A DNA stretch of 29,100 nt from Treponemataceae bacterium (GTDB lineage Bacteria > Spirochaetota > Spirochaetia > Treponematales > Rectinemataceae). The notes beneath the pieces were generated by a model. That model saw only the letters and a list, made by a program, of their open reading frames with translations, did no database searches and was not told the origin of the DNA. A program made the position numbers and the translations under genes. The stretch lies in NCBI GenBank assembly GCA_963677895.2, contig CAXXGJ010000029.1, positions 1 through 29,100 on the forward strand, read 5' to 3'. Shown here in pieces: positions 1 through 28,874 of the stretch. How positions within the stretch are numbered: the first letter of the stretch is position 1; the number at the start of each line of letters is the position of its first letter.

Positions 1-2
1 TC

Positions 3-95
3 TATCTGGACAGGCTGAAGAATCCGAACCTGCCGATAAAACATATCATCTATCCGCCCATTCTCACGGAACAGAAAAGCGTCCGCGACATTTAA
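3..95 (+). CDS. C-terminal end of a LacI-type ligand-binding-domain transcriptional regulator (partial, truncated by window start)
   Basis: Manual translation from base 3 gives YLDRLKNPNLPIKHIIYPPILTEQKSVRDI* (TAA 93-95). This resembles the typical LacI/GalR tail (L..RI..P......I..P.L..R.SV). Not in the ORF track. Confidence 0.7.
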   Translation, partial: YLDRLKNPNLPIKHIIYPPILTEQKSVRDI

Positions 96-103
96 AACGC
101 GGG

Positions 104-862
104 TTATCTGCAGATATAGAGTCCGCCGTTCACGTCCATGGTGTCTCCGGTGACATAGCCCGACAAGTCGCTCGCGAAGAAGAGCACAGCGTTGGCGATA
201 TCCTGCGGACTGCCGAAGCGCTGCATCGGGATGGTCAGCTTGGGATCGTCCTTGGGGTCGTGAAGCCAGCTAAGACCTTCAGCCATTTTGGTGAGCGTCC
301 TGCCCGGGCACACGGCGTTGGATGTGATGCCATACTGTCCGCCGTTGAGGGCAAAGGACTTGGAAATATTGAGCACTCCAGCCTTCGAGGCCGAATAGCT
401 GGCCGATGAGCCTCGGCCTCCCCGTTCACCCGCCATCGAAGCGATGTGGACAAGCTTGCCGTAGCGCTGCGTTTTCATTATTTCGAACACTGCCTGAGTG
501 CAGAAGAATACGCTTTTCAGGTTGATGTCCTGCATTCTGTCCCATTTCTCTTCGCTGATGCTTTCGATGGGCGCGGCCTCGGTGATGCCGGCGTTGTTTA
601 CCCAAATATCGATCCTGCCATACATCGCCTTCAATTCAGCAATATTCGCCTTAACACTCCCGAAATCGGAGACGTTGAAAACCTTATGCTTCGCCGCGAA
701 ACCGGCGGCAACGAGATCATCGGCCACTTGTTTTGCGCTCTCCTCGGCGATATCGGTGACGATCACCTTCGCGCCGTACTGGGCGAGTGTCCTGACGATC
801 GCTTCGCCGATTCCGCGCCCCGAACCCGTTACGACGGCTACTTTTCCATCCAGCAGATTCAC
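104..862 (-). CDS. Short-chain dehydrogenase/reductase (FabG-like classical SDR)
   Basis: TGSGRGIG Rossmann motif, NNAG, YSASK catalytic motif, C-terminal VTG..MDVNGG; GTG start 3 nt after the upstream stop. Confidence 0.93.
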   Translation of the reverse strand: MNLLDGKVAVVTGSGRGIGEAIVRTLAQYGAKVIVTDIAEESAKQVADDLVAAGFAAKHKVFNVSDFGSVKANIAELKAMYGRIDIWVNNAGITEAAPIESISEEKWDRMQDINLKSVFFCTQAVFEIMKTQRYGKLVHIASMAGERGGRGSSASYSASKAGVLNISKSFALNGGQYGITSNAVCPGRTLTKMAEGLSWLHDPKDDPKLTIPMQRFGSPQDIANAVLFFASDLSGYVTGDTMDVNGGLYICR

Positions 863-865
863 GAT

Positions 866-2425
866 TTACTCCTTATGCTCAGCTTCATTGGATTTCGAAA
901 TTTCCGGGGGTTCAATCCCCAAAGCCATACCGATAGCCTTGTTCCATCCAGCGATTTTTTCGGCGCGGAGGGCTTCAGCCATAGTCGGCCTGTACTCATT
1001 CCATTCCGCGAGGTCCTCGCAGGATTTCTTGTCGAATACGCCTGTGGCCATGCCGGCTATGAGCGCGGCTCCCAGGCAGGTCTTTTCCTCGTTATGGGGA
1101 ATCCGCACAGGGCAGCCCAGGATGTCGCTCTGGAACTGCATGAGGTAGTGGTTCTTCGTAGGTCCACCAGCCACGGCCATGGCGAGGACATCGACGCCAG
1201 AGTCGGCCGTCATGGCGCGCACGACGTCGGCCACCTGATAGGCTATGCTCTCCAGCCCGGCGCGGACTATTTCCGCGCGCCCGGTCGTGCGCGACATGCC
1301 GCAGAGGACGGCTTTCGCCTCGTTTTTCCAGTGCGGCGCCCCGATGCCCGTAAAGGCCGGAACGAGATAGCTGCGATCGGCGGGATTGGCGCCCTGCGCC
1401 AGGCTGTCGGTCTCAGCGGGTGAAGAAGCCAACCCCAGATCTTTGCAGAGCCAGGTTACGACGGCGCCCGAGTAGTTGATTACGCCGTCGAAGGCGTACC
1501 GCAATCCGCATGCCGTTTTCCAGGCTACGGAACTGAGGACACCGTGGTTCGACAGCAGGGGTATATCGCCGATATTCATCATCACGCAGGAGCCGGTCCC
1601 GAAGCCGGTCATGCACATTCCCTTTTCCAGGCAGCCCTGGGCAAAAAGGACGGCATGCGAGTCGCCTATCGCCGCATGTATGGGAATCGGATTCTCGAGC
1701 ATGCCATCGAGGTCGGCATATCCGTATAGCGCGTCGGAATCGCAGATTTCGGGCAGGCAGGCCATGGGTATGCCGAACAGTTTGCAAGCTTTCTCGTCCC
1801 AGCGAAGCTTTTCCAAGCTGAGCAGCATCGTCCGCGAGGCGTTGGAGACATCGGTTTTGTGAACCTTTCCGCCGGTGAGGTTGTAAATGACCCAGGAATC
1901 CATGGTGCCGCAGCAGAGTTCGCCCCGCTGGGCGCGCTCAAGGGCTCCCTTCACGTTCTGGAAGATCCAGGAGATCTTCGGAGCCGAGAAGAAGGGCGAT
2001 AGAATAAGTCCCGTCGTCTTCCTTATATAGTCGGCGCGACCTTCGCGCTCGAGGCGGGCGCAGAACGGCGAGGCCCTGTTGCATTGCCATACGATCGCGT
2101 TGTAAACGGGTTTGCCGGTTTTCCGTTCCCAAACCGCCACCGTTTCGCGCTGGTTCGCCACGCCGATACAGGAGATCGCCCGAGGATCGACGCCGCTGTT
2201 CCGAATGAGACGCTTCAGTACCGTCAGCACGTTGGCGGCTATCTCGGCCGGATCATGCTCCACCCAGCCCATCTCGTTCACGATCTGGCGATGGGCGATG
2301 TCCTCGCGGGCGACCAGGCGGCTGTCCCTATCGAACAACATCGCCTTTGTGCTCTGCGTGCTCTGGTCGATTGCGATGACGAAGGTTTTCTGCATGGCTC
2401 CCTCAGCTTCCGGCATTTCCGGCAT
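866..2425 (-). CDS. glpK: FGGY-family carbohydrate kinase, glycerol kinase-like with substituted substrate pocket (alternative start at 2395)
   Basis: IDQSTQSTKA, NQRET, AIVWQC, GTMDSW, TDVSNASRT, VPAFTGIGAPHW and LESIAYQ motifs; TAATG overlap with the upstream gene. The symbol denotes family only. Confidence 0.88.
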   Translation of the reverse strand: MPEMPEAEGAMQKTFVIAIDQSTQSTKAMLFDRDSRLVAREDIAHRQIVNEMGWVEHDPAEIAANVLTVLKRLIRNSGVDPRAISCIGVANQRETVAVWERKTGKPVYNAIVWQCNRASPFCARLEREGRADYIRKTTGLILSPFFSAPKISWIFQNVKGALERAQRGELCCGTMDSWVIYNLTGGKVHKTDVSNASRTMLLSLEKLRWDEKACKLFGIPMACLPEICDSDALYGYADLDGMLENPIPIHAAIGDSHAVLFAQGCLEKGMCMTGFGTGSCVMMNIGDIPLLSNHGVLSSVAWKTACGLRYAFDGVINYSGAVVTWLCKDLGLASSPAETDSLAQGANPADRSYLVPAFTGIGAPHWKNEAKAVLCGMSRTTGRAEIVRAGLESIAYQVADVVRAMTADSGVDVLAMAVAGGPTKNHYLMQFQSDILGCPVRIPHNEEKTCLGAALIAGMATGVFDKKSCEDLAEWNEYRPTMAEALRAEKIAGWNKAIGMALGIEPPEISKSNEAEHKE

Positions 2426-3153
2426 TATCGCGCGAACGCCTCGTAATGATGTTTCCCTTTGAGGCTTTCGACATCATAGGTAGGACGAAATCCCTGCTGG
2501 ACGAAACCGGCGATGCGCACATCGGGATTCTTCAATTCCGGCAGCAGGTGCTCCTCTTTCCCCCATTCTACTATTTCGAAATCGCCGTTATCCCACACAT
2601 TCATCTTGGACACGGAGGTGTTTTCAAGCCTGTTCATATTCCAGACGTCCTTGATGGGGATATCGAAGAGCTTGGCCAGGATCAACTGGATGGTGAGCAT
2701 GTGCGTGACGATCGCTATGCGTTTGCCTTTATTTTCCCTCACGATTCTCGAAAAAGCCGCCACAGCCCGCTCCTGGACCTGAAGAAATGTTTCGCCCCCG
2801 GGCATCTGCAGCTTGTCAGGCGCATTCTGCCATAGATCAATCATTCCCGGCCAGAGTTCTTCTATTTCCGCTCTGTTGAGATCTTCCCAGCCGCCGCAGT
2901 GAATTTCGCAGAGCCCGCGGTCCGTAATAATCTCCAGCGGTCTATCCCCCCTCACCTGTTCGGCTGTCATCATAGTCCGCTTATATGGGCTCGCGTAGAC
3001 TCTGTCGAGGGCAACTTTGGCCATGGGCGCTTTGAGGCAGGCGGCCTGTCTCATGCCCCTTTCATTCAAGGGTTTGTCGGTGCTACCGATAAATCGGTGC
3101 TTTACATTATTGTCCGTCTCGCCATGCCTAACAATATAAATTTCAGTCAACAC
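2425..3153 (-). CDS. Histidine phosphatase superfamily protein (CobC/GpmB-like)
   Basis: RHGET motif, ASPYKR, LCEIHCGGWE, PGGETF, second His in VTH; AGGAG RBS before the GTG start. Confidence 0.92.
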   Translation of the reverse strand: MLTEIYIVRHGETDNNVKHRFIGSTDKPLNERGMRQAACLKAPMAKVALDRVYASPYKRTMMTAEQVRGDRPLEIITDRGLCEIHCGGWEDLNRAEIEELWPGMIDLWQNAPDKLQMPGGETFLQVQERAVAAFSRIVRENKGKRIAIVTHMLTIQLILAKLFDIPIKDVWNMNRLENTSVSKMNVWDNGDFEIVEWGKEEHLLPELKNPDVRIAGFVQQGFRPTYDVESLKGKHHYEAFAR

Positions 3154-3165
3154 GGAAGATGCTCC

Positions 3166-4542
3166 TTATTTAACTTTTATCGTATGGATGGCTTTGCCGA
3201 AAGCGTCGAGCGCCGCTTCGCGGAGCATTTCCGACAAGGAAGGATGGGCGACTATAAGATGTTCCCATTCCTCCAGTTTCATGCGGTTCGTCACGGCGAC
3301 AGTCGCCATGGAAATCAGTTCCGAGGCATTTTCGCCCACTATGTGTACGCCGAGAGTAGTTTTTTCGTTTTTGTCCATGACGACGCAGACGATTCCCGCG
3401 GCTCCCTCGGCGAGTGCCATACCGTTCCCCTCGTATCTGAAAATTCCGGTAATAGTTTCAATACCTTCTTTTTCGGCCTGAACGCTTGTCAAACCGACTG
3501 CCGCGAGGCATGGCAGCGTGTAGACGCAGCGCGGGATGGCGCGAACATCGAGGCTTCGTTCCACACCCAGAATGTTGGCGACGGCGGTTTCCGCCTCGGC
3601 GTAGGCGGCGTGTGCCAGCTGATACCCGCCGGCCACATCGCCTATGGCATATACATTAGGCAGGTTAGTCCTCATATGCTTGTCGACTTGGATATACTTC
3701 CGCTCGCTCAGCTCGAGGCCCAGTTTTATGGTATCGAGACCAGAGAAGGAAGCCTTGCGGCCAATCGCCATCAGGACAATATCGGCCTCCACTTCTCCCA
3801 CGCCATCTTTGTTCTGGAAGGATACCCTGAATGCCGCGCCACTCCTTTCGATGTTCAGTACTCGCGATCCCGCGGCAATCTTCATGCCGCGTTTTTTCAG
3901 TGATTTCACGAGGAAATCCGCAGCCGTTTTTTCTTCCAAGGGAAGCAGGGAATCCAGCATTTCCACGATGGTGACTTCTGAACCGAAGGAGGCGAAGGCG
4001 CTGGCCAATTCAAGTCCGATTACGCCGCCGCCGATGACGGCGAGTCTGTGGGGGATTTTCTGGAGAGCAAGGGCTCCGGTGCTGTCGATAGCGAGTTCGG
4101 CTCCAGGTATCGGGATACTGACGGGAACCGAGCCCGTTGCGATGATCACATTCTCGGCGGTATATTCCGTTCCATCGCAGGTGGCTTTCCCTGCTCCAGT
4201 TAATAGCGCTTCGCCTCGCACAAGGGTTACGCCACTGGCTTTGAGCAAGGCGGAAACGCCGCCGACCAGCTTGTCCACAACCTCGCTTTTTCCTTTTTGA
4301 ATGGCGCGAAAACTGAAGGAACCGGCGTCTTTGAAGACACCTTTCCCCGTTAAGCCGCGGATCTTCTCGAGAGTCGCGGCCTTGTCCAGCAGGTACTTGG
4401 TTGGAATACAGCCCACGTTGAGGCATGTTCCGCCCAACGTATCCTTTTCGAAGAGAACCACCTTGAGACCGTTCTTGGCGGCCTCGATGGCGCTCGAATA
4501 TCCCCCGGGGCCGCTCCCGAGAACCATAAGATCGAAATGCAT
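3166..4542 (-). CDS. lpdA: Dihydrolipoamide dehydrogenase (E3)
   Basis: GSGPGG FAD motif, GGTCLNVGCIP redox disulfide, GGGVIGLE NAD motif, AIGD, HPSLSE. Confidence 0.96.
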   Translation of the reverse strand: MHFDLMVLGSGPGGYSSAIEAAKNGLKVVLFEKDTLGGTCLNVGCIPTKYLLDKAATLEKIRGLTGKGVFKDAGSFSFRAIQKGKSEVVDKLVGGVSALLKASGVTLVRGEALLTGAGKATCDGTEYTAENVIIATGSVPVSIPIPGAELAIDSTGALALQKIPHRLAVIGGGVIGLELASAFASFGSEVTIVEMLDSLLPLEEKTAADFLVKSLKKRGMKIAAGSRVLNIERSGAAFRVSFQNKDGVGEVEADIVLMAIGRKASFSGLDTIKLGLELSERKYIQVDKHMRTNLPNVYAIGDVAGGYQLAHAAYAEAETAVANILGVERSLDVRAIPRCVYTLPCLAAVGLTSVQAEKEGIETITGIFRYEGNGMALAEGAAGIVCVVMDKNEKTTLGVHIVGENASELISMATVAVTNRMKLEEWEHLIVAHPSLSEMLREAALDAFGKAIHTIKVK

Positions 4543-4552
4543 TCCAGCCCCC

Positions 4553-5818
4553 TCAGCAGAGCATAAGGGCTGGGCTTTCCAGCAACCCTTTTATCGACTT
4601 AAGAATTCGGGCTCCATAGGAGCCATCGATGACGCGATGATCGTAGGAAGCGGTTACTTCCATCATAGGGACGCTCTTCCATACCCCAGCTTCCCACACA
4701 GGCCGCGCCACGATGTTGCCAAGTGCAAAGATGCTACATTCGGGCGGGTTGATGATAGCCGTGAAATGGTCTATTCCGTGCATCCCCAGGTTGGATATCG
4801 TGGTGGAACCGCAACCCATGTCGGAAGGAACCAGGCTTCCTGCGCGCGCTTTTTCCACGCCGGCATTGTTGGCCGCGGCAATTTGCGCCAGCCCCAGGCT
4901 CTCCACATTCTTCGCAACCGGTACGATGAGTCCAGCGTCCAGCGCGACCGCTAAGCCGATATTGGAGTGCCGGTAGACCCGGATCTCGTCATTCTCGTAG
5001 CGCGCGTTCAGCAGCGGGAATTCCTTCGCGCTGACAGCGATAGCTTTCGCGAAAATATCGTTGTAGGAAATTTTCACGCCGCTCCTAGCAAAGATATCCG
5101 CCTTGAGCTTCATCGCTTCCGCCATGTCGATCTGTACCGAAAGCTGGAACGAAGGGATGGTCTGGACGCTTCTGAGCATCCTTTCACCAATTTTCCTGCG
5201 CATTGTGGTGAGCGCGAGCACTTCGTATTCCGTGGTCTCCGTCGCTGGGGCTTCCATCCGAGCCTCATCCTGCTGCGCTTCGGCGTCCGCCGAACCTTCG
5301 TTCATAACTTTAAAGCCCAAGGCATCCAGATAAGCCCGCACGTCGCTCCGTTTTACGAGACCCCCGTTGGCCGGCACCACCTTCGCGATATCCAACTTAT
5401 GCTCGGCCGCCAGTTTCTTGGCGTTCGGCATGGCGCGCGCTTCGGCCTTCGCGACATCTCGCATAATCAGCGCGAAATCATCATCATCGTCAGGCCGGTC
5501 CGTTTTTTTCGCAACGGTTGTGTCTACCGCGCCTACCGCGCCCGCTCCGTCCTTCGAAGCCGAGTAGGCAGCAAAATCCGACTCATCGCCCACTAATGCC
5601 AGCACGCAGCCTGCGTCGACGCTGTCGCCTTCCTTGACGAGCAGGTCGATGACGACGCCTTTCGCAAAGCTTTCTATCGAGAGCGTGGCCTTGTCCGTTT
5701 CCACTTCCAGAAGCAGGTCGCCGCGCTGAACCTTGTCGCCCTTCGCCACGAGCCAACGGCAGATGACGACTTCGTCAGTCGTCTGGCCGGCGCTCGGCAT
5801 CGTTATTTCCTTAATCAT
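4553..5818 (-). CDS. Dihydrolipoamide acyltransferase (E2) with a single lipoyl domain
   Basis: Lipoyl motif EVETDKAT, E3-binding segment (AMPNAKKLAAEH...GGLVKRSDV), TISNLG, catalytic DHRVIDG. Confidence 0.95.
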   Translation of the reverse strand: MIKEITMPSAGQTTDEVVICRWLVAKGDKVQRGDLLLEVETDKATLSIESFAKGVVIDLLVKEGDSVDAGCVLALVGDESDFAAYSASKDGAGAVGAVDTTVAKKTDRPDDDDDFALIMRDVAKAEARAMPNAKKLAAEHKLDIAKVVPANGGLVKRSDVRAYLDALGFKVMNEGSADAEAQQDEARMEAPATETTEYEVLALTTMRRKIGERMLRSVQTIPSFQLSVQIDMAEAMKLKADIFARSGVKISYNDIFAKAIAVSAKEFPLLNARYENDEIRVYRHSNIGLAVALDAGLIVPVAKNVESLGLAQIAAANNAGVEKARAGSLVPSDMGCGSTTISNLGMHGIDHFTAIINPPECSIFALGNIVARPVWEAGVWKSVPMMEVTASYDHRVIDGSYGARILKSIKGLLESPALMLC

Positions 5819-5834
5819 GTCGCATCACCTTTAT

Positions 5835-6848
5835 TCATGCCATCATCAATCTTCGCGCCGCCTCGACAATTCTTTCCTTGGAGGGAATGACATAGTTTTC
5901 AAGCGGCGGAGAGAAGGGCACCGGCGTATCGTAGGCAGCGACGCGCGAAATCGGCGCGTCCAGCAGGAATATCTCGTTCTCCGCGAAATACGAGGCTACC
6001 TGGGCTCCCCAGCCGCAATTGTAGTTGTCCTCGTGAACGATCATCAGCCTGCCCGTCTTCCGGACCGATTCGACAACCGTTTCGTAGTCAAAGGGAACGA
6101 GGGTTCTCGGATCTATGACTTCGCATTCGATCCCCTCTCTCGCCAGAATGTTCGCCGCCTCCTGGGCTTTGTAGCTCATGAGAAGGTTGGCCACGATGGT
6201 GATGTCTTTGCCCTCGCGGCGGATTGCCGCCTTTCCGAAAGGAACGGTGTAGTCCCCATCCGGTACATCGCCAGCCGTGTCGATGGCGTCCTTTTCCTTT
6301 CGCTTGCTTCCATACAAAAGCTTGTGCTCGAAGACGATGACGGGATTATCGTCTCTGATGGCTTCCTTCATCAGGCCTTTGGCGTCGTAAGACGTGGAGG
6401 GGCAGATGACCTTCAGGCCTGGAACGTGGGTAAAGTAGCTTTCCAGACTCTGCGCGTGCTGGGCTCCGCGGTTGCTCGCCCCGCAGGGAGCGCGCATCAC
6501 CATCGGTACGTGGACTTTGCCGCCGGACATATAGCACATCTTGGCGGCCTGGTTCACGATCTGGTCCATCATGCAAAAGAGGAAATCTCCATACTGGAGG
6601 TCAGCCACAGGCCGCATTCCCATCATAGACGAGCCTACGCATACGCCAGCGATCAGGATTTCTGATATGGGCGTGTTGATGACCCGCTTGCTTCCGAATT
6701 CTTCGGCAAGACCTTTTGTGACGGTAAAGGCGCCGCCCATTCCACCGGGAATATCCTCATCCTCGCCAATGCAGTAAACCGCCGGATTGGCTCTCATTTC
6801 TTCGGCTATCGCGCTCTTGAGAGCGTCGGCTATAGACATCTTGGCCAT
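5835..6848 (-). CDS. TPP-dependent dehydrogenase E1 beta subunit (AcoB/PdhB-like)
   Basis: IGED, NTPISE, DQIVNQAAK, QHAQSLE, FEHKLLY, EVIDPRTLVP; TGATG overlap with the alpha subunit gene. Confidence 0.95.
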   Translation of the reverse strand: MAKMSIADALKSAIAEEMRANPAVYCIGEDEDIPGGMGGAFTVTKGLAEEFGSKRVINTPISEILIAGVCVGSSMMGMRPVADLQYGDFLFCMMDQIVNQAAKMCYMSGGKVHVPMVMRAPCGASNRGAQHAQSLESYFTHVPGLKVICPSTSYDAKGLMKEAIRDDNPVIVFEHKLLYGSKRKEKDAIDTAGDVPDGDYTVPFGKAAIRREGKDITIVANLLMSYKAQEAANILAREGIECEVIDPRTLVPFDYETVVESVRKTGRLMIVHEDNYNCGWGAQVASYFAENEIFLLDAPISRVAAYDTPVPFSPPLENYVIPSKERIVEAARRLMMA

Positions 6849-7831
6849 CAGTTTTTCCCTCCATTCCAGTAAACGTCCGTCATAGCGGTTTCAAGCGCGG
6901 GGAACGGAGCGTTTTTCGCGTATTCGACGGCTTCGTCGATGTCATCCTCAATTTTCTTCTCTGTGGCGAGCAGTTCATCCTCGCAGGCCAGGCCCTTTTC
7001 CAGAATCAAGGCGCGGAACATGGTCACGGGATCTTTGGAGAACCAGAGCTTCTCTTCCTCTTTGGGCCTATACCCGCAGGCATCGTTGCGTGAATGCCCT
7101 CCGTGTCGATAGGTTTTAAGCTCGAGAATGGTCGGGCCCTCACCTTTCCGGGCGCGCTTTATAGCGCGGGCAGCCGCTTCGTTAACAGCCAGCACATCGT
7201 TCCCGTCCACGACTTCGGCGGGGATATCATAGGAGCCGGCCCTGTCGGCAGCCACATTCTCTTTGTTGCAGGTGATCTTGATGGATGTCGTGGCGGAATA
7301 AAGGTTATTCTCGCAGACGAATATGACTGGCAGCTTCCAGATGGCCGCGCCGTTCAGCGTTTCATGGAACGAACCTTCGTTGGTGGCGCCGTCGCCGAAA
7401 AAGCAGACAACAACGTTATCCTTGTTCTGCATCTGGTAAGCGAGTGCCACACCGGCCGCTATGGGAAGATTGCCGCCTACGATGGCATTAGCCGTCAGAG
7501 CCCCTACAGCGACATCGCCAGTATGCATCGCTCCGCCCTTGCCGTTGCAGCATCCATCAACCTTCCCGAACATTTCGCACATCATGGACCTCAGGGAAAC
7601 GCCTTTCGCGAGGTCATGACCGGCGGGGCGATGGGTAGATGCCATATAGTCATCCAGGCGCAGGTCATACAGCATGCCGACGGCGCAGGCTTCCTGACCG
7701 GTGCTCTGATGGATCGTTCCCGGCATAATCCCCTCCAGGAACAGATAATAAATTCTTTCCTCGTACTTGCGGATGAGAAACATCCTTTCATACATACCCA
7801 GCGATTTCTTCTTTTCAGGCATTTTCTTCAT
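6848..7831 (-). CDS. TPP-dependent dehydrogenase E1 alpha subunit (AcoA/PdhA-like)
   Basis: GQEA, STHR, GKGGAMH, TPP motif GDGATNEG...ENN, TYRHGGHS. Start moved from 7870 to ATG 7831, which follows AAGAGGGG. Confidence 0.94.
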   Translation of the reverse strand: MKKMPEKKKSLGMYERMFLIRKYEERIYYLFLEGIMPGTIHQSTGQEACAVGMLYDLRLDDYMASTHRPAGHDLAKGVSLRSMMCEMFGKVDGCCNGKGGAMHTGDVAVGALTANAIVGGNLPIAAGVALAYQMQNKDNVVVCFFGDGATNEGSFHETLNGAAIWKLPVIFVCENNLYSATTSIKITCNKENVAADRAGSYDIPAEVVDGNDVLAVNEAAARAIKRARKGEGPTILELKTYRHGGHSRNDACGYRPKEEEKLWFSKDPVTMFRALILEKGLACEDELLATEKKIEDDIDEAVEYAKNAPFPALETAMTDVYWNGGKN

Positions 7832-7848: not shown

Positions 7849-7860
7849 ATGTAATTACAT
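7849..7860. promoter_or_regulatory. Putative operator, perfect palindrome ATGTAATTACAT (copy 1)
   Basis: Exact 12-bp self-complementary sequence just upstream of the E1 alpha RBS; identical copy at 8001-8012. Confidence 0.7.
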
Positions 7861-7947: not shown

Positions 7948-7976
7948 AGTATGACATTAGTTATTCGGGTTGTCAA
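7948..7976 (-). promoter_or_regulatory. Sigma70-type promoter of the E1/E2/E3-kinase operon
   Basis: Minus-strand TTGACA (7976-7971), 17-nt spacer ending in TGn, then CATACT (7953-7948). Confidence 0.65.
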
Positions 7977-8000: not shown

Positions 8001-8012
8001 ATGTAATTACAT
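8001..8012. promoter_or_regulatory. Putative operator, perfect palindrome ATGTAATTACAT (copy 2)
   Basis: Identical to 7849-7860; lies upstream of the -35 box. Confidence 0.7.
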
Positions 8013-11989: not shown

Positions 11990-13021
11990 TCAGAATCCCA
12001 CGCCGATGTACCATTTGGTCCAGGCCGTGAAGCTCTCGCCGAACCAAGTGTCGGAGAAGGCCCAGCCTTTCGCGAGGGCGGATGGCAGATTCGGCGCAGC
12101 GGCGAGCAGAATGTCGGAGCGGAAACCTCCGGTGAGGCGAAGCGCGCCCAGCTTCAGGGAAAGGCTCGCGTCGAGCGTAGGCCAGGGCGCCAGGACATCT
12201 TCCGGTCCGCGGCCGCCACGATAGGCCAAAGCATCGAAAAATCCGTCTATGTCCGGTCCCGTCGCCTGGGAAGCCGATACCGCGAGATCGAGATGGAGGC
12301 TGCGCGAATCGCCGATTCTCGTTCCCAGACCCGCCGACAGCACGGTGTTGTCGGGAATATTGAACCAATCGTCCCGAGGCATGGCGATCGAGTAAATTCC
12401 GAATACCGAGGTATTTCCCGTTTTCAAGGTTCCGTAGACGTACTCGGTTTGGGATTCCCAGGATCCCGATAGTTCGAAAACGCCGTTGGAGGATATGTTC
12501 ACGAGCCCCAGCTGGATGCCATCCACGCGATCGGCCACATTGACGATTCCCACCTGGAATCCGCGCACGTCGTCCGCTATGTTGAACACCGGCGAGATCT
12601 GCGCGCCATCGACGTCGCCGGCGATGTTGAACACGCCGGCGGTCTGGATCCCCTCCACGCCGTCCGCTATGTTGAATACGCCGGCTAACTGCACGGGGGT
12701 ATAGGCATCTCCCGCTATGTTGAACACGCCGGCCGCCTGGATGCCTTCCATGGTGTCGTCGGCGATGTTGAAGACGCCCGCGGCCTGCAATCCGCGAATA
12801 TCATCGGCGATGTTGAAGACACCGGCCGCCTGGAGAAGGTCCACTCTGCCCGATATGTTTCCGATCGAACCCAGCACGATGCCGGCCCGGTCGGCGCTGA
12901 AGGGCAGGGCTACGCCCGGGACGACGGAAATTTGTACCGGAACGTAATCGAAGGCAAAAAGGGTGGTTGCGGGGAAAAAGAAGATGGTCGCCGCGGCGAT
13001 AATGAAAAGAAAATGTTTCAT
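11990..13021 (-). CDS. Secreted/outer-membrane protein with Q-x-x-G-V-F-N-I-A repeats (LA_2272-like surface repeat family)
   Basis: Signal peptide from ATG 13021 (GGGGGA RBS), about eight 14-16 aa repeats, and a C-terminal alternating beta-strand region ending YIGVGF. Confidence 0.75.
   Translation of the reverse strand: MKHFLFIIAAATIFFFPATTLFAFDYVPVQISVVPGVALPFSADRAGIVLGSIGNISGRVDLLQAAGVFNIADDIRGLQAAGVFNIADDTMEGIQAAGVFNIAGDAYTPVQLAGVFNIADGVEGIQTAGVFNIAGDVDGAQISPVFNIADDVRGFQVGIVNVADRVDGIQLGLVNISSNGVFELSGSWESQTEYVYGTLKTGNTSVFGIYSIAMPRDDWFNIPDNTVLSAGLGTRIGDSRSLHLDLAVSASQATGPDIDGFFDALAYRGGRGPEDVLAPWPTLDASLSLKLGALRLTGGFRSDILLAAAPNLPSALAKGWAFSDTWFGESFTAWTKWYIGVGF
12505..12860 (-). repeat. Intragenic coding tandem repeat, 45-48 bp period
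   Basis: ATGTTGAA core on the + strand at 12579, 12624, 12669, 12717, 12765 and 12810 (spacings 45, 45, 48, 48, 45). Confidence 0.9.
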
Positions 13022-13130
13022 GCTATCCCCCGTTCGGGCGGATTCAGACGTAGCTGTCCTGAGCGGACACGCTTTAGGCAAAAGATAGCACAAACCTCGA
13101 GAAACACCCAACATATCGATGAAAAATTAT

Positions 13131-14435
13131 CTACATTGCCGCAGCCGTCTCGTAGACCGCGGCTGTCTCGTTCGCCTCTGCCTTCCTGTCCAACATTTCG
13201 CCGATTCTTCTCTTTTCCTGGAACTTGTACATTTCCTCCACCGCGAACTGCAGCTTGGTGACCGCGTTTTTAGCGGTGAGGGGGTAGAGATAGAAAGTAT
13301 CCTCGATGGTGGACAAGTCCAGGCAGTCGCCCTTTCCGAAATAATCGAATTCGATATGGAGGCTGTAGAGCGACGAGGGCTTCTTTTCCAGACGGAATTG
13401 CCTGTCGCCTTCCAGCTTTTCCAGGACGAAGCCTTCGGAGGAATGTGTAAGGGTAGCCTCGCCGAGACGGATATAGCCTTTTGCGTTGGGCAGGGAATCG
13501 ACCATGACCCTGTCCCTGAAAAAGTATGTCCCCTCCTCGATTTGCCTGCGGACCATCTTCCGCTCGAATTCGAACCAATCGGGAATATGGGAGTATTCAG
13601 TCACGCCCTCGACGGCGGACAATTCCCCGAGTTCGCTCATCGTCCAGCGCTTGTGGCAATGCTCGCACCATAGCTCGTTCTTGTCGGAGTTCATCCTGGA
13701 TTCGGTCAGGCAGTGGGGGCATTGATAGAGAATATGGTGGAGTCCCTTGGCCCGGTTCGGGAAATCGATGGCGACGGCATTGTCCTTCTGCCAGCGGTAT
13801 TCGTCGTACCGGAAGGCGGCGTTCACTTTCCGGTTTATCTCGTCGACGCTTGCCGCCTCGATTTGTTCCGCCGTATAGAGCCGCTCCATCGTCGCTTCCA
13901 GCCCGCACTTTCTTTTCTCGAGATTCCACACCGGCTGGGACAGATAATTTCCATGCTGCGTCAGCACGACGACCGGCACCTTGAACAGCTTGATGAGTTT
14001 GCCGAGGGAATCGGGCAGGACAGAGGTTGTTCCGCAATAGGAATACCGCGCCTCGGGGTACAGCGCCACGATAGTCTTGTGTTCCTGCAGCGAATGCTTC
14101 ATCTGCCTGACGAGAAGAATATCGTTGGTGAATTTTCGCTTGCAGATGCATCCGACCTGCCTGAGCAACCATTCGCCTTTGAGAAAGCCATCGATCGCCA
14201 CCACGTAGTTGGCGCGATGGGGGAAGATGGCCCGCGTCGTCACCTTGAAATCGACGAAGGCCATATGGTTGGATAAAAGCAGATATGGAGGTTTCACTCC
14301 CTCCATATTGATTTTCGTGATCTTCAGCTTCCGCTGAAGAATTTCGGGAAAACTCAAAAGCCAGGCTACCGGCGTCAGGAACCATCGCTGCTTGACGGGC
14401 TTTTTCGCCATGTCGAACTTTTTTACCGCTTCCAT
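13131..14435 (-). CDS. Lysophospholipid/glycerol-phosphate acyltransferase family protein with C-terminal Cys4 module
   Basis: NHMAFVD (HX4D) and LYPEAR blocks; CPHC...CEHC. Likely start is ATG 14435 (CAGGAGA RBS, TGATG overlap with the corA stop), not 14819. Confidence 0.85.
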   Translation of the reverse strand: MEAVKKFDMAKKPVKQRWFLTPVAWLLSFPEILQRKLKITKINMEGVKPPYLLLSNHMAFVDFKVTTRAIFPHRANYVVAIDGFLKGEWLLRQVGCICKRKFTNDILLVRQMKHSLQEHKTIVALYPEARYSYCGTTSVLPDSLGKLIKLFKVPVVVLTQHGNYLSQPVWNLEKRKCGLEATMERLYTAEQIEAASVDEINRKVNAAFRYDEYRWQKDNAVAIDFPNRAKGLHHILYQCPHCLTESRMNSDKNELWCEHCHKRWTMSELGELSAVEGVTEYSHIPDWFEFERKMVRRQIEEGTYFFRDRVMVDSLPNAKGYIRLGEATLTHSSEGFVLEKLEGDRQFRLEKKPSSLYSLHIEFDYFGKGDCLDLSTIEDTFYLYPLTAKNAVTKLQFAVEEMYKFQEKRRIGEMLDRKAEANETAAVYETAAAM

Positions 14436-15451
14436 CAGGATCTCCTGTTGTCCAGCCATTTTAAAAACGCGTAGTTGGCGATGCCCATCAAGGCCATGAC
14501 GCCGAGGAGGATCGGATACACGATTTTCCAGTTTTCCGCTCCGGCTATCATCGTCAGTTCGGACATGCCGCCGATCCCGGCGATCAGGCTGAGCGGCATG
14601 AATATCGTCGTGATCAACGTTAGGCGATTCACTGAGTGGTTGGTGCGGTTCGACGACTCGGCCATCGCGTTGCTCGTCAACGAAAGCTGGATCTGTACGA
14701 GATTCGTCACCGTCTCGCGGTTGGATTCCACGATTTCCACGAACTTCGCCAGATGATCGTAAAGGTCGCTGAAATAGGCCAGATCCCCTTCCTTGATGAG
14801 GGGGCTGTCGTGCCTGCATATCCTCACCAATATTTCGCGCTCATGAAAGAGGCTCTTGCGCATGACCATCAGGTTCTGCCTTATACCATGCAGCTCCGCG
14901 TTGTCGACGGGGCCGCTTTGGGTGAGAATCAAATCCTCGAACCCCGATATCCGGTCTCCCACCTTCTCGACGGCCCCGAATTTATTGTCGATCATTCTAT
15001 CGAGAAGCGCGTACAGGACGCGCGCCGGTCCCCGAACCGGTTTCGCGGCATCGACGGCGAGTTCGTCGAGAATATCCTCGCAACGGTAGAGATCCGCGCA
15101 TCCATCCCTGATGACCGAGACGAGAAAATCCTTCCCGAGGAAAAAATTGACTTCCCTGATGCCCAAAGTCTCGTTTCCGGCGAGGAAATCGTTGAACAGG
15201 ATTCCCGTGTAATCGGTGAATATATCGATTTTCGGGAGGTAATCCTCATCGAAACAATCCTCTATGGAGAGAGGATGAATGCCGAGCTCGGCGACCAGTG
15301 GATCGAGATCGGCCTTGTCCGGCGAGACATAGGCGAGCCAGACGAACCCGCCTTCCTTTTTCAGGCTCAAGGCATTCTCGCGGGTATGCGCGTCGATCAC
15401 CGCGCCATTCGGCGAATAGTAATAGAAGTTATTTTTCGTCATGATGAACAC
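14435..15451 (-). CDS. corA: CorA-family divalent cation transporter (GMS signature variant)
   Basis: LGIHPLSIEDC, PKID, FFLGKDFLVS, YFSDLYDHL, RLTLITTIFMPLSLIAGIGGMSE and a final TM helix. Start uncertain (15451 GTG or 15442 ATG). Confidence 0.9.
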   Translation of the reverse strand: MFIMTKNNFYYYSPNGAVIDAHTRENALSLKKEGGFVWLAYVSPDKADLDPLVAELGIHPLSIEDCFDEDYLPKIDIFTDYTGILFNDFLAGNETLGIREVNFFLGKDFLVSVIRDGCADLYRCEDILDELAVDAAKPVRGPARVLYALLDRMIDNKFGAVEKVGDRISGFEDLILTQSGPVDNAELHGIRQNLMVMRKSLFHEREILVRICRHDSPLIKEGDLAYFSDLYDHLAKFVEIVESNRETVTNLVQIQLSLTSNAMAESSNRTNHSVNRLTLITTIFMPLSLIAGIGGMSELTMIAGAENWKIVYPILLGVMALMGIANYAFLKWLDNRRS

Positions 15452-16626: not shown

Positions 16627-17289
16627 TCAATCGAACTTTTTCAGCTCGTTTATCATGGCCATGACATCAGTATTATAGAGTCGCTCAACGTTAATCTTGG
16701 GGAATCCGCCCGCGCGGAAATGCTTGCGCAGTTCCACTTCCTTGGCCACGGATTCCTCCGCCCTGACGAGCAGGTCCAGGTAATTGTCGGGAGGAATGAC
16801 CACGACGCCGTCGGCGTCGCCGAAGACGAGGTCGCCGGGATGGACGACCGCGCCCGAGCAGCTGACCGTGACGTCATGCTCGCCCGAGATGCCGATGACG
16901 TTGGTCGTCACCACCGATAAGCCGGTGCAGAAAACTGGATATCCGGATTTTTCGATGGCCAGGGAATCGGTCGCCGGACCATCGATGACGATGCCGGCGA
17001 AGCCCTGGCACTCGCAGAACAGCGCCACCATTTCGCCCACGCAGGCATAGGTCGTATCGCCGCAGCGGTCGATCACGATGACCGATCCCTTGGGCGCGTG
17101 TTCCATGGCGTAATAGAGCGCGCAGGAATCCTTTCCCTGCAGCCTCACCGTATAGGCGGGCCCGACCATTTTCGAATTCTTGTTGATCGGCTTCATCTCG
17201 GGGCGCATGTAGCCGCCGCCGATATAATGACCGATGGTCGCCGGATCCACTTTCATGAACCGGTCGATGATGTCTTGCGGAATTGCCAT
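16627..17289 (-). CDS. RraA/HMG-aldolase family protein
   Basis: MVGPAYTV, GSVIVID, ACVGEM, GIVIDG..TD, YPVFC, VHPGDLVFGDADGVVVIP. Confidence 0.9.
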   Translation of the reverse strand: MAIPQDIIDRFMKVDPATIGHYIGGGYMRPEMKPINKNSKMVGPAYTVRLQGKDSCALYYAMEHAPKGSVIVIDRCGDTTYACVGEMVALFCECQGFAGIVIDGPATDSLAIEKSGYPVFCTGLSVVTTNVIGISGEHDVTVSCSGAVVHPGDLVFGDADGVVVIPPDNYLDLLVRAEESVAKEVELRKHFRAGGFPKINVERLYNTDVMAMINELKKFD

Positions 17290-17301
17290 TATTAACCTCG
17301 C

Positions 17302-18129
17302 TTAGCGAATTTTGAGCTCGTAGATATCGGACCTTCTGTTCTTCAACGACGGGATCTGCCCGCGGATCTTGTCCAGGAAATCCAGATCGATTTCAGCCAA
17401 CGTCACGCCCGGCTGATCCTTGGATCTCGCGATGACGGTTCCCCAGGGATCCACGACAAGGCTGTTGCCGAAAGCGGTGAAATTGGGTTTCTTGCCTATC
17501 TGGGCCGGCGCGACGATATAGCAGCCGTTTTCGATGGCGCGGGCGCGGAGAATGGGCTCCCAGTGATCTTTGCCCGTGGACAGGGTAAAGTTGGCCGGCG
17601 TAAAGATGATCTGGGCTCCGTCCAGGGCGAGAAGACGGAACAGCTCGGGAAAGCGGATGTCGTAGCAGATGGAGAATCCAAGCTTGCCCAGGTCGCTGTC
17701 CACGGTCACGATTTCCGCGCCCGGCTGGATTCTTGCCGACTCGTTGCATACGGTGCCGTCCGTGAGGGTGACATCGAAGGTATGGAGTTTTCTGTAGCGC
17801 GCGATGATCCTGCCCTCCCTGTCCAGCATAACGGTGGTATTGAATCCCTTCGTCTCGCCGGGAATTTCTTCCTTGATGCTGCCGCAATGGATGTAGATGC
17901 CCAGTTCCTTGGCCTTCCGCGCCAGAATTTCCGTGCTGTAGCCGGGGATGGGTTCCGCCCCGCCGCCTTCGCCGATATTGTCCCCCAGCAGGTTCATCAC
18001 CTCGGGAAGGGCGACGAGCCGCGCGCCCTTGCGCGCGGCTTCGTCTATATATTCGCAGATCTGGGCCAGATTCTTCCCTTTGTCGTTCTGCGTATCCAGC
18101 TGGATGATCCCGATCAGGAATTTTCTCAT
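17302..18129 (-). CDS. Carbon-nitrogen hydrolase (Nit1/Nit2-like amidase)
   Basis: Glu-Lys-Cys triad: LPEV, YRKLHTFDV, SICYDIRFPE; HWEPILRARAIEN. Start at ATG 18129 after GAGGAG. Confidence 0.93.
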   Translation of the reverse strand: MRKFLIGIIQLDTQNDKGKNLAQICEYIDEAARKGARLVALPEVMNLLGDNIGEGGGAEPIPGYSTEILARKAKELGIYIHCGSIKEEIPGETKGFNTTVMLDREGRIIARYRKLHTFDVTLTDGTVCNESARIQPGAEIVTVDSDLGKLGFSICYDIRFPELFRLLALDGAQIIFTPANFTLSTGKDHWEPILRARAIENGCYIVAPAQIGKKPNFTAFGNSLVVDPWGTVIARSKDQPGVTLAEIDLDFLDKIRGQIPSLKNRRSDIYELKIR

Positions 18130-18142
18130 CGTATTCACTCCT

Positions 18143-19108
18143 CTAAATAAGGCCGTTGATGGCTTTGACATGATGGCAGGCAACGTAATAATCCTCTCTC
18201 GCCTTTTCGAATGCCGGCTCCGTGGTCGAGCAGATTTCGGTGGCGTATTCGCAGCGCTTGGCGAACCTGCAGCCGGGTTTCGGATTGATAGGCGAGGAAA
18301 TTTCCCCTTTGAGCAGGCGCCTGCCCTTCTTCGCGCCGAGCGCGGGCACGGGAACCGCGGCGAGCAGCGCCTTGGTGTAGGGGTGAAAGCGGTACTTGAA
18401 AATTTCCTTCACCGGCGCGTATTCGACCATCTTGCCCATATACATGACGAGGATGTTGTCGGAAATATGCTTGACGACGGCCATGTTGTGCGTGATGAAA
18501 AGGTAGGTGAGGTTTCTCTCCTGCTGCAGATCCTGCATCAGGTTGAGGATCTGCGCCTGGATGGATACGTCGAGGGCGGAGACGGGTTCGTCGCAGACGA
18601 TGAACTTCGGATTGAGGGACAGGGCGCGCGCCACGCCGATGCGCTGGCGGCGGCCGCCGTCCAGCTCGTGCGGATAGGAATCCGAAAGCCTGCGCGCGAG
18701 CCCTACCGTATCCATGAGCTTTCCGACCTGCTCGCTCAGTTCGGCGGGATTCTTGAACTTATTATAGATCTTCAGGGGCTCCGCGATGAGATTGCTCACC
18801 GACATTCTCGGATCGAGGGATGAAAAGGGATCCTGGAAAATCATCTGCATATCCTGGCGATACCGCTTGAGATCGGCGCGATTCAGCTGGCTGATATCCT
18901 CTCCCTCGAAATGGATGCTGCCCGAGGTCGCCTCCAGGAGGTGGATGGTCAGCCGGCCGAGCGTCGACTTGCCGCAGCCCGATTCCCCCACGACGCCGAG
19001 CGTCCGGCCCTTTTCGATGGCGAAGGATACGCCGTCGACGGCATGAAGATCGCCCCTGGGTGTCTTGAAATATTTCCTGAGATCTTTGACTTCTATCAGT
19101 GCGCTCAT
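18143..19108 (-). CDS. oppF: Peptide/nickel ABC transporter ATPase (OppF-like)
   Basis: GESGCGKST, FQDP, YPHELDGGRRQR, IVCDEPVSALD, HPYT, GCRFAKRC. Confidence 0.93.
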   Translation of the reverse strand: MSALIEVKDLRKYFKTPRGDLHAVDGVSFAIEKGRTLGVVGESGCGKSTLGRLTIHLLEATSGSIHFEGEDISQLNRADLKRYRQDMQMIFQDPFSSLDPRMSVSNLIAEPLKIYNKFKNPAELSEQVGKLMDTVGLARRLSDSYPHELDGGRRQRIGVARALSLNPKFIVCDEPVSALDVSIQAQILNLMQDLQQERNLTYLFITHNMAVVKHISDNILVMYMGKMVEYAPVKEIFKYRFHPYTKALLAAVPVPALGAKKGRRLLKGEISSPINPKPGCRFAKRCEYATEICSTTEPAFEKAREDYYVACHHVKAINGLI

Positions 19109-19117
19109 ATCAACCTC

Positions 19118-20083
19118 TTACCCATGGTACTTCACGCATTTCACGAAATGTCCCGGCTCCACTTCCACGACGGGCACGGCCGCGGCGCGGCATTTCTCCG
19201 AAGCGTCGGGGCATCGCGGCGCGAAAACGCATCCCTGAGGAAGATTCGTCGGGTCGGGCATCAGACCGGTGATCGGCTGGAGCCGGTCAACGTCCTCGTT
19301 CAGGTTGGGAATCGAACCGAAAAGACCGATCGTGTAGGGGTGTTTGGTGTTATTGTAGATATGCTCCAGGGTACCGTATTCCACGATTTCGCCCGCGTAC
19401 ATTATGGCCGCTTTCTGGCAAATCTCGGCCACCACGCCCAGGTCGTGCGTGATGAGGATGAGCGACGTACCCCTGTCCCTCATGAGCTTTTCTATGAGAT
19501 CGAGCACCTGGTCCTGGATCGTCACGTCGAGTGCCGTTGTCGGCTCATCCGCTATCAGCAGCTCGGGATTGCAGGCCAGCGCGATCGCGATGACCACCCG
19601 CTGCTTCATGCCGCCGGAAAACTGGTGCGGATATTCCGCGTAACGCTCGCCCGGAATGCCCACCAGCTCCAGCATTTCCTGGGCCTTTATGGAGGCCTTC
19701 GCGCGGGATATTTTCTGATGAAGGCGCACAACTTCAGCTATTTGATCGCCGACCGTGAGGACGGGGTTAAGCGCCGTCATGGGATCCTGGAAAATCATGG
19801 AGATCTTGTTGCCGCGAATCGAGCGCTTATCAGAAGGCGACATGGCGACGAGGTCCTGCCCGTCGTAGAGTATCTGGCCGCTGACGATCTTCCCGGGCGG
19901 ATCGGGAATCAGCTGCATTATGCTGAGCGCCGTGGTGGTTTTCCCCGCGCCCGTCTCGCCGACCAACCCCAGGGACTCGCCCTTCTTCAGGGAAATAGTC
20001 ATTCCGTTCACGGCGTGAACGGTGGTTGTGTCCGTCACGTAATGGACAACGAGATTCTTGATCTCGAGAATAGTGTCGTTCAT
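19118..20083 (-). CDS. oppD: Peptide/nickel ABC transporter ATPase (OppD-like)
   Basis: [45 protein letters not shown]. Confidence 0.94.
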
Positions 20084-20094
20084 TCACCGTCCCC

Positions 20095-20973
20095 TTAGCT
20101 CTTGAGCCGTGGATCGAGAGCGTCGCGCAGCCCGTCGCCCAGAAGATTGATGGAAAAAACCGTAAGCATTATCGCGAGTCCGGGGAAAGTGACGACCCAC
20201 CAGTAATCGCGGATGAAAGCCCTGCCGGAAGCGAGCATCGAACCCCACTCAGGCGTCGGGGGCATTATCCCCAATCCGATGAAGCTCATTCCCGCGCCCT
20301 GGATGATGGCGGCCGCTATGCTCATCGTAGCCTGGACGATGATGGGCGCCATGCAGTTCGGAATGATATGGCGCGTTATGATGCGCCAGTCGCTGGCGCC
20401 GTTGGAGCGGGCGGCTTCGATGTATTCCTGTTCCTTCACCGAGAGAATGGAAGCGCGCACAACGCGAGCGTAGCCGGGCACGGCGCCGATTCCTATGGCG
20501 AGGATCAGGTTGAAGAAACTCGTGCCCATGGCGGCGACTATCGAAACGGCCAGGAGGATGTTCGGTATCGAGAGCATGATGTCGATGAAGCGCATGATTA
20601 TGTTGTCCACGACCTTGCCGTAATAGCCCGAAATGCATCCGAGGATGATCCCGATCAGGCAGGATATCGTGACCGATACCAGACCCAGGGTGAGCGAGAT
20701 CCTGCAGCCGAAGATGACCCTGCTGAATATATCCCTGCCAAATTCGTCGGTTCCGAAAGGATACTCGAGGGAAGGCGCCTTGAAACGGCGGGAGAGCATC
20801 TGTTCGTCGAAGCCATAGGGCGCTATGAGCGAAGGGACGAGCGCCAGTATCGTCAGGAGAATTATGAAGGCGAGGCCGAGCACGGCGCCCTTGTTCTTTA
20901 CGAAACGCCGCCAAATCTCCTTGGATTGGCCTCGCTTTTTCATTTTTATGGAGAGGACTTCGTTGTCTGCCAT
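20095..20973 (-). CDS. oppC: Peptide/nickel ABC transporter permease (OppC-like)
   Basis: FGTDEFGRDIFSR, EYIEAARSNGA (EAA loop), PEWGSML, GDGLRDALDP. Confidence 0.94.
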   Translation of the reverse strand: MADNEVLSIKMKKRGQSKEIWRRFVKNKGAVLGLAFIILLTILALVPSLIAPYGFDEQMLSRRFKAPSLEYPFGTDEFGRDIFSRVIFGCRISLTLGLVSVTISCLIGIILGCISGYYGKVVDNIIMRFIDIMLSIPNILLAVSIVAAMGTSFFNLILAIGIGAVPGYARVVRASILSVKEQEYIEAARSNGASDWRIITRHIIPNCMAPIIVQATMSIAAAIIQGAGMSFIGLGIMPPTPEWGSMLASGRAFIRDYWWVVTFPGLAIMLTVFSINLLGDGLRDALDPRLKS

Positions 20974-20974
20974 A

Positions 20975-21946: not shown

Positions 21947-21993
21947 AGAACCATTCTCCTTCCCGGCGGAATATGTGCCGACTCCATAAAACA

Positions 21994-22032
21994 GGATCCT
22001 CGATCCGACAGGCTTTGCCGGATCGAGGGTCC
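21994..22032 (-). terminator. Intercistronic stem-loop after oppA (partial terminator or mRNA stabiliser)
   Basis: Minus strand GGACCCTCGATCCGGCA-AAGCC-TGTCGGATCGAGGATCC followed by TGTTTT; 17-bp stem with one mismatch and one G-U pair. Confidence 0.75.
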
Positions 22033-22067
22033 ATTACGCATGTATCGCAGAAAATGTTCTTGAGCGC

Positions 22068-23567: not shown

Positions 23568-23598
23568 GTTTCCTGGGTCTCCTTTCTAAAAATTTGCT

Positions 23599-26695: not shown

Positions 26696-26716
26696 GCCTT
26701 TTCCTCTGAATATCCT

Positions 26717-28873: not shown

Positions 28874-28874
28874 A

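Follow-up and report, generated by a model that had tools for sequence, protein, structure and literature searches.

The 29.1-kb window analyzed here is the whole of contig C29 in the 3.5-Mb assembly (completeness, 92.8%) of an anaerobic Treponemataceae bacterium, and it carries a gene set for a complex resembling the 2-oxoacid and acetoin dehydrogenases, together with genes for a histidine phosphatase, a sugar-type kinase, and a short-chain dehydrogenase/reductase (SDR) (Table 1). As the first-pass annotation had stated, the seven open reading frames (ORFs) run in one direction and are closely packed: all lie intact on the minus strand between 7831 and 104, the successive intergenic gaps from E1alpha to the SDR are -1, 16, 10, 12, 29, and 3 nt, and a purine-rich stretch precedes each gene. 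Their families were assigned with Pfam and NCBIfam. Contigs from four public runs cover the operon, none of them over its full length. The seven genes likely form a single operon that is repressed by a LacI-family protein.

The complex belongs to the 2-oxoacid/acetoin dehydrogenase multienzyme superfamily, with the thiamine diphosphate (ThDP) motif GDG...ENN and His246 retained in E1alpha, the second catalytic histidine (His131) in E1beta, the lipoyl Lys43 and the DHRVIDG motif in E2, and the redox disulfide (CLNVGC) in E3. LplA-like genes (28 to 32% identity) are present elsewhere in the host genome.

Table 1. Features of the operon and its surroundings in the window, with the E2-esterase fusions of related loci
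Feature	Position	Strand	Remarks
LacI-family regulator, 3' end, converging, cut by contig end	1..95	+	C-terminus same as that of the L143 LacI
SDR dehydrogenase	104..862	-	PF13561; conserved xRGGR loop ahead of catalytic Tyr
GlpK-derived FGGY kinase, AplK-type pocket	866..2395	-	GDSH, GTGSCV, GGPTKN
Histidine phosphatase, branch 1	2425..3153	-	PF00300, RHG motif; under all NCBIfam cutoffs
E3 dihydrolipoamide dehydrogenase	3166..4542	-	TIGR01350, 473.6 bits versus cutoff of 408.8
E2, lipoyl domain + E3-binding domain + acyltransferase	4553..5818	-	DHRVIDG intact
E1beta	5835..6848	-	PF02779 + PF02780; RGAQH loop, Arg127 four residues ahead of catalytic His
E1alpha, ThDP-binding subunit	6848..7831	-	PF00676; clade motifs HQS, HRP, GHSRND (Arg248)
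Operator-like palindrome O1, ATGTAATTACAT	7849..7860	.	directly upstream of E1alpha ribosome-binding site
Sigma-70-like promoter TTGACA-17-(TG)CATACT	7948..7976	-	10/12 consensus positions; consensus match only
Operator-like palindrome O2, ATGTAATTACAT	8001..8012	.	same sequence as O1
E2-esterase fusions	L037:12055-13797, L039:12109-13845, L048:5631-7082, L054:8799-10550, L055:4931-6664		beta-lactamase-family domain in acyltransferase place

The two tabulated copies of ATGTAATTACAT are the only ones in the assembly, and a repeated palindrome of at least 10 bp appeared in none of 2,000 base shuffles of the intergenic region. Between them sits the promoter-like site, one of 6 found in a whole scan for which 5.2 would be expected by chance. 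Of the LacI protein, the window holds a 30-residue tail (positions 3 to 95), which has no Pfam match by itself; metagenome contig L143, 96.8% identical over window positions 1 to 1354, carries the entire 338-amino-acid (aa) protein with the same terminal residues, which bears out the converging LacI-type regulator of the first-pass annotation. Behind lacI, L143 carries ugpA- and ugpE-like permease genes of an ATP-binding cassette (ABC) system and encodes a UgpB-like binding protein, a metallo-hydrolase of the Pce/ComEC type, and a phosphodiesterase of the NPP family; the stretch that separates lacI from the ABC genes holds three operator-like sites. L003 likewise has operator-like sites ahead of its ABC genes, and in another genome (L233) the same block lies behind the same operon. 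Since blastn found no match to this continuation in the host's own assembly, its presence in the host is deduced from the near-identical strain. Across related loci, two copies of TGTAATTACA lie in the 260 nt ahead of E1alpha at 19 of the 21 loci with an orthologous LacI and at none of 22 loci of the aldolase type described below. The palindromes already pointed out at the 5' end thus track the regulator, as expected for a LacI regulon, and represent a putative operator.

In our trees, E1 is a branch of its own within the acetoin/pyruvate dehydrogenase family. These were built on E1alpha plus E1beta, with 28 rows (Shimodaira-Hasegawa-like approximate likelihood ratio test, SH-aLRT, and approximately unbiased, AU, test) and with 97 rows (FastTree); the E1 references came from annotated plasmid records, the acetoin dehydrogenases among them being defined by an acoX, AcoC, AcoR, or butanediol dehydrogenase context. 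The group containing the window forms a clade (SH-aLRT of 100 and a stem of 0.35 with 28 rows; 1.0 with 97 rows), which does not nest inside the context-defined AcoA/AcoB clade (support of 99 with 28 rows) and from which the pyruvate and branched-chain dehydrogenases are also apart. Its nearest branch appears to be a group with a GHSKSD loop (SH-aLRT of 84 with 28 rows; 1.0 with 97 rows). These results agree with the earlier suggestion of a dedicated, nonhousekeeping complex. Among 76 loci of the clade, E1alpha has the loops HQS (74/76), HRP (76/76), and GH[SA]RND (68/76; GHxRxD in 76/76), and all 75 loci having E1beta carry RGAQH in it. The loops GHFEGD, GHSMSD, and GHSKSD were found at none of the 76, nor were the AcoA/AcoB motifs GHFEG (0/76) and AAQH (0/75). 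The E1alpha of the window falls below the TIGR03182 and TIGR03181 cutoffs, with PdhA equivalog scores of 335 versus 393.85 bits and 246 versus 411.35 bits, and its loop is GHSRND rather than GHSMSD or HTM; E1beta passes the broad subfamily model NF006667.

Two clade-specific arginines, alpha-Arg248 and beta-Arg127, adjoin both catalytic histidines in the alignments, equivalents of which are given as H271alpha and H128beta of heterotetrameric E1 in PMC2663715. Beta-Arg127 is aligned with the Asp of the GEDG.TH loop of transketolase and DXS (row TK_G000 of this alignment bears the DXS-type motif, not the transketolase one). In these enzymes the Asp presumably reads the C4 hydroxyl of the donor; beta-Arg127 may instead bind phosphate, and would suit a phosphate near C4. 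Sequence searches of the PDB returned no structure of an acetoin dehydrogenase or of the window clade.

The complex is a patchy, accessory trait. At E<=1e-100, none of 60 relatives has an E1beta match, and among the rows listed for 400 genomes of the phylum the best full-length E1alpha match is 51% identical (57% over a partial stretch). Bacillota, further spirochaetes, a coriobacterium, and Acidiphilium hold orthologs at 60 to 81% identity, and the host genome has pyruvate:ferredoxin oxidoreductase (PFOR) and acetate kinase. Neither the window nor the annotated recurrent neighbor clusters contain acoX, AcoR, or butanediol dehydrogenase, singleton ORFs being only partly annotated. When the SDR was sought apart from E1, L143 was the sole ortholog among the 80 metagenome loci listed, and samples of 400 genomes each, with up to 6 candidates scored per genome, gave no new ortholog; their single strong match, G1055, is the genome of L057. 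The host has a second complex of the same clade (L001, C18:401173-414534; 64 to 66% identity), whose neighbors are a xylulokinase-like kinase, a sugar ABC system, and, labeled by eye, a Zn-dehydrogenase-like gene, a cyclase-like gene, and a SorC-like regulator. Each of the two E1 loci of the host has nearby a similar block of genes for a peptide ABC transporter and for creatininase- and nitrilase-family proteins (window 16627-24351, which also holds an RraA-like gene; C18:414936-424920, labeled by eye).

We surveyed the neighborhoods of the 76 loci, many of them close kin, with flanks of up to 10 kb. One orthologous SDR is present at 41 loci (55 to 78% identity, except for one of 44% that shares the motif), and an aldolase-like gene lies between E1beta and E2 at 22, with a xylulokinase-like kinase at 21 of these. 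The two types never co-occur (0/76), the SDR type nests within the aldolase type in the 97-row tree, and the 13 loci with neither gene are mostly on short contigs. Phosphoesterases of some kind accompany the SDR at 36 of 41 loci: a histidine phosphatase at 30 (orthologs at >=54% identity at 20) and an NPP-family enzyme at 20. Transporters at SDR loci are Ugp-like ABC (12/41), tripartite ATP-independent periplasmic (TRAP; 7/41), galactitol-type phosphotransferase (PTS; 4/41), and SsuA-like ABC (2/41) systems. With phosphodiesterases and Ugp-like ABC, TRAP, or PTS systems as its usual partners, the SDR-linked complex likely receives a polyol that arrives already phosphorylated. The first-pass annotation had tied the complex to an SDR, a phosphatase, and a kinase; the first two do recur as partners, the kinase is found at only 7 of 41 SDR loci, and the full set is found at 6 of 76.

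The aldolase-type loci are informative in another respect. Transketolase genes are present at 6 of 22 of them and at 1 of 41 SDR loci, and several adjoin a cassette of a split transketolase, an AplK-like kinase, a Zn-dehydrogenase, and a related histidine phosphatase (40 to 45% identity). This cassette has the layout of the window with transketolase in the place of E1, which suggests that E1 performs the donor half-reaction, oxidizing the C2 unit rather than transferring it. Dihydroxyacetone-kinase-family genes are also found at aldolase-type loci. The class II aldolase-like protein itself (22 loci, e.g., L047:12008-12922) has LNESD where we take HLDH to be the usual metal-binding motif. Further variation was seen around the clade. 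At L014:1076-2215 and at SDR loci of the TRAP/ABC type, the window-type enzyme gives way to another histidine phosphatase, which carries a fused GNAT domain. Members of the GHSKSD-loop group (L088, L089, L100, L090, L105, and L087) are linked to regulators of the SorC type, to PTS genes of the glucitol or galactitol type, or to an NAD(P)H oxidoreductase that is a putative DXR-II, and two basal clade members from Armatimonadota (L073 and L074) adjoin genes for a RuBisCO-like protein, a kinase resembling rhamnulokinase, and an isomerase-like TIM barrel.

The kinase is an accessory, optional member of the system. It scores below the TIGR01311 cutoff (564 versus 590 bits) and above that of the broader NF000756, and it has F, S, and C at the positions of the GlpK glycerol pocket that we take to be Y135, Q246, and F270. 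A canonical GlpK is encoded on contig C6 of the host. The motifs GDSH, GTGS, and GGPTKN are shared with the apulose kinase AplK of Escherichia coli SE15 and with the kinases adjoining split transketolases, and the kinase groups with AplK rather than GlpK (support, 88/85), though at only 39% identity and on a sub-branch of its own. The names aplK and aptA/aptB follow PMC13001218; no aptA/aptB adjoins the kinase in the window. A separate apiose-type locus on host contig C24 (L109) holds an AplK-like kinase, an isomerase-like gene, a split transketolase, and a TRAP system, the labels being partly by eye. Searches elsewhere in five genomes gave only GlpK-type or weaker kinase matches in four and none at threshold in the fifth. 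Reading Tyr135Phe as a mark of a methyl-branched substrate was rejected, as AplK also lacks this Tyr.

In the SDR, the xRGGR loop lies between the catalytic Ser and Tyr; R147 and R150 are invariant in 13 aligned orthologs, and in a wider set two have H at the second position. The SDR likely acts on a phosphate ester rather than ahead of the kinase, which is found at so few SDR loci, and we therefore depart from the earlier proposal that a polyol or sugar is oxidized to a ketose, which is then phosphorylated. No match to the UgpB-like protein was obtained in five esterase-type genomes, in a search run without a positive control. The PF01663 gene was also considered as a phosphonoacetate hydrolase, an assignment set aside because it has no NCBIfam match and its nearest structures are NPPs.

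The nature of the acyl group can be approached through E2. A supported sub-branch of 20 loci departs from the usual E2: in 5 it is fused to an esterase, in 13 the DHR motif with its catalytic His is lost, and 2 are cut short. The fusions consist of lipoyl, E3-binding, and beta-lactamase-family (family VIII) esterase domains, the last with an SxxK motif; a free esterase adjoins 11 of the 13 E2 genes without DHR, and none was found at the 49 loci scored as DHR intact (the remaining E2 rows are L008 with DHK, a truncated L011, and five loci at which no E2 was picked by pattern). We infer that acyl-lipoamide is hydrolyzed in this sub-branch. Acetate kinase is present in all five of its genomes examined, and discarding an acetyl thioester there would waste ATP. 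The degeneration and replacement of E2 hence suggest a nonacetyl acyl group, and the acetyl-CoA offered as a possible product in the first-pass annotation appears less likely. The acyl-pocket segment FTAIINPP has, at 31 of the 33 loci matched by pattern, the Phe that presumably marks an acetyl-type pocket. All five examined genomes without an adjacent E3 have one elsewhere; in esterase-fusion genomes (L240, L241, L242, and L243) E3 is encoded in a different lipoyl cluster, which also holds an unrelated protein of some 490 aa.

Considering these data, we lean toward a model in which oxidative cleavage by the complex divides a ketose phosphate into a triose phosphate and a small nonacetyl, probably glycolyl, acyl group, with the SDR forming the ketose phosphate from a polyol phosphate. 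Ketol cleavage by the ThDP-dependent complex, proposed earlier, thus stays the most likely chemistry on the evidence of clade and partners. Phosphodiesterases would free the polyol phosphate, which would be imported by the Ugp-like ABC system (by TRAP, galactitol-type PTS, or SsuA-like ABC systems in other genomes). Setting the position of the phosphate or admitting free polyol may fall to the histidine phosphatase and to the AplK-like kinase of those loci that have one, and the NAD-dependent SDR would oxidize the polyol phosphate. ThDP would then attack the carbonyl, the triose phosphate would leave, and the acyl group would move to lipoamide, from which E2 would pass it to CoA in the window type and an esterase would free the acid in the sister sub-branch. 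E3 would generate NADH. A triose phosphate leaving group would, by our reasoning, be needed to repay the ATP or phosphoenolpyruvate (PEP) spent in the kinase and PTS versions. Our leading specific guess, put forward with low confidence, is a branched ketol of the apulose-4-phosphate type yielding dihydroxyacetone phosphate (DHAP) and glycolyl-CoA, as it agrees best with the kinase, with the beta-Arg, and with the energetics. Glycerol-1-phosphate and D-ribitol-5-phosphate were provisionally set aside by reasoning, as their ketoses enter central metabolism without E1, and erythrulose-4-phosphate would suit the beta-Arg, but its cleavage would yield no triose phosphate to cover the cost of uptake by PTS or kinase.

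Several points weigh against this model. The AU test does not reject a sister relation of the window clade and the acetoin dehydrogenases (P = 0.16), references for the latter rest on gene context rather than assay, and the arginine positions come from alignments, not a structure. With 39% identity to AplK, which sits on a long branch, the kinase has a higher identity to Klebsiella GlpK (43%). The esterase swap took place once in evolution, among loci that are often close kin, the E2 of the window is itself intact, and the esterase could act as a transferase. We know of no natural phosphodiester of apiitol. The TRAP (7/41) and SsuA-like (2/41) carriers are compatible with sugar acids too, and here lies an alternative that we hold to be unlikely: the SDR would turn a sugar acid that bears a phosphate, being a 2-hydroxy acid, into a 2-oxo acid, and ordinary decarboxylation of this 2-oxo acid by E1 would give a hydroxy- or phospho-acyl thioester and CO2. 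The arginines of the SDR and E1 could equally bind a carboxylate, and a (phospho)glycerate-type acid released by the esterase would supply glycolysis; however, the galactitol-type PTS (4/41) and the AplK-type kinase indicate neutral polyols, and the aldolase-type loci, whose E1 has identical active-site loops, hold ketose-type kinases and dihydroxyacetone-kinase-family genes.

A ketol might also be cleaved with the phosphate kept on the acyl half, as phosphoglycolyl or 3-phosphoglyceroyl, the histidine phosphatase acting on the product or on a bisphosphate, e.g., from a cyclic pyrophosphate opened by NPP. The phosphatase is common without the kinase (orthologs at 20 of 41 SDR loci versus a kinase at 7), the five genomes searched for kinases hold nothing beyond GlpK-type or weaker matches, NPP enzymes cleave pyrophosphates, and E1 has two clade-specific arginines to offer. 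Nevertheless, the presumed acetyl-type Phe of E2 suits a small uncharged acyl group, and we rate this possibility as slightly more doubtful than decarboxylation of a sugar acid. Marginally lower still we place a 1-deoxy ketose phosphate, such as a deoxyxylulose-phosphate analog, with acetyl-CoA as the product: it would accord with the intact window E2 and its acetyl-type pocket, and with the GHSKSD group as nearest branch, which includes loci with the NAD(P)H-dependent oxidoreductase taken as DXR-II, but the active-site loops differ at all 76 loci, and the esterase sub-branch would be discarding an acetyl thioester despite its acetate kinase. That an ordinary pyruvate or acetoin dehydrogenase is cotranscribed with sugar genes by chance seems very improbable. 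Automatic annotation does label the E1 proteins this way, E1alpha is 43 to 47% identical to context-defined AcoA, and the AU result leaves the sister position available; against this stand the separate clade and motifs, the lack of acoX, AcoR, and butanediol dehydrogenase in annotated recurrent neighbor clusters, and the accessory distribution in a host that has PFOR.

Elsewhere in the window, a sensor kinase (27403-28939; DUF4118 and HisKA) has its ATPase part apparently in another frame and a response regulator (26679-27410) has an apparently frameshifted C terminus, so that this two-component pair is possibly broken or affected by sequence errors. Two long ORFs (11990-13114 and 13131-14819) have no Pfam match, and the first holds about 8 short GVFNIA-type repeats.

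In searches confined to open-access PMC and bioRxiv text, no account of such a system came up, and the operon probably represents a conserved but undescribed pathway variant with the mechanism proposed above. In its boldest form, which we offer tentatively, this would be an undescribed family of lipoate-dependent ketose-phosphate dehydrogenases, with which anaerobes of guts and digesters would convert a branched polyol phosphate from an unrecognized phosphodiester by fermentation to DHAP and glycolyl-CoA, the lipoyl-esterase E2 of one lineage freeing the acid without CoA. If true, it would join aldolase/transketolase and phosphoketolase as a third route for the splitting of ketose phosphates, and would reassign proteins automatically annotated as pyruvate or acetoin dehydrogenase in such anaerobes. 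It would also imply that a further phosphorylated polyol circulates in gut and digester communities, and would provide, in the complexes with a lipoyl-esterase E2, a dehydrogenase that nature has made independent of CoA, as well as a ThDP carboligase that handles phosphorylated and possibly tertiary ketols.

Among known systems, AcoABCL shares with the window complex a heterotetramer-type E1alpha/beta, a lipoyl E2, an E3, and the proposed ThDP cleavage of an alpha-hydroxyketone. Beside some AcoAB genes, AcoC is a lipoyl domain joined to a hydrolase fold. According to PMC3744081, AcoABCL cleaves the tertiary ketol methylacetoin to a ketone and an acyl-CoA, and the aco cluster is treated in PMC3543383. 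The window clade differs in its motifs (HQS/HRP/GHSRND/RGAQH versus HLY/HRG/GHFEGD/AAQH), in having LacI and an operator in place of the sigma-54 activator AcoR, and in its partners, an SDR, phosphoesterases, and Ugp-like transport, where acetoin systems have acoX and butanediol dehydrogenase. The fold, the cofactors, and both catalytic histidines are shared with the heterotetrameric dehydrogenases of pyruvate and branched-chain 2-oxoacids, whereas the window proteins are 30 to 38% identical to them, score below the NCBIfam PdhA cutoffs, have other loops, and are not distributed like housekeeping enzymes. The ugp/gpdQ glycerophosphodiester operons likewise combine UgpA/E/B-like ABC genes with phosphodiesterases (NPP, glycerophosphodiester phosphodiesterase [GDPD], calcineurin-like, and Pce/ComEC-like), but the binding protein here scores 72 against the UgpB cutoff of 411 bits, and glycerol-3-phosphate needs no lipoyl complex. 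Similar in layout is the D-apiose transketolase pathway (ApsI or oxidoreductases, AplK, and AptAB), the chemistry of which was reportedly established by Carter et al. in 2018, with its AplK-type motifs, its sequence of dehydrogenase, kinase, and ThDP enzyme, and DHAP as the leaving group also proposed here. In that route the C2 unit is transferred to an acceptor, while in the window it would be oxidized onto lipoamide; the window system also differs in an SDR with only 31 to 36% identity to those of SE15, in an accessory kinase, and in what it takes in, likely a phosphate ester. Finally, phosphoketolase resembles the proposed reaction in that ThDP serves to split a ketose phosphate into a triose phosphate and an activated C2 acid, yet it dehydrates its intermediate to acetyl phosphate, whereas the window complex would be oxidative, lipoate dependent, and NADH yielding and would keep the hydroxyl, as a glycolyl group.

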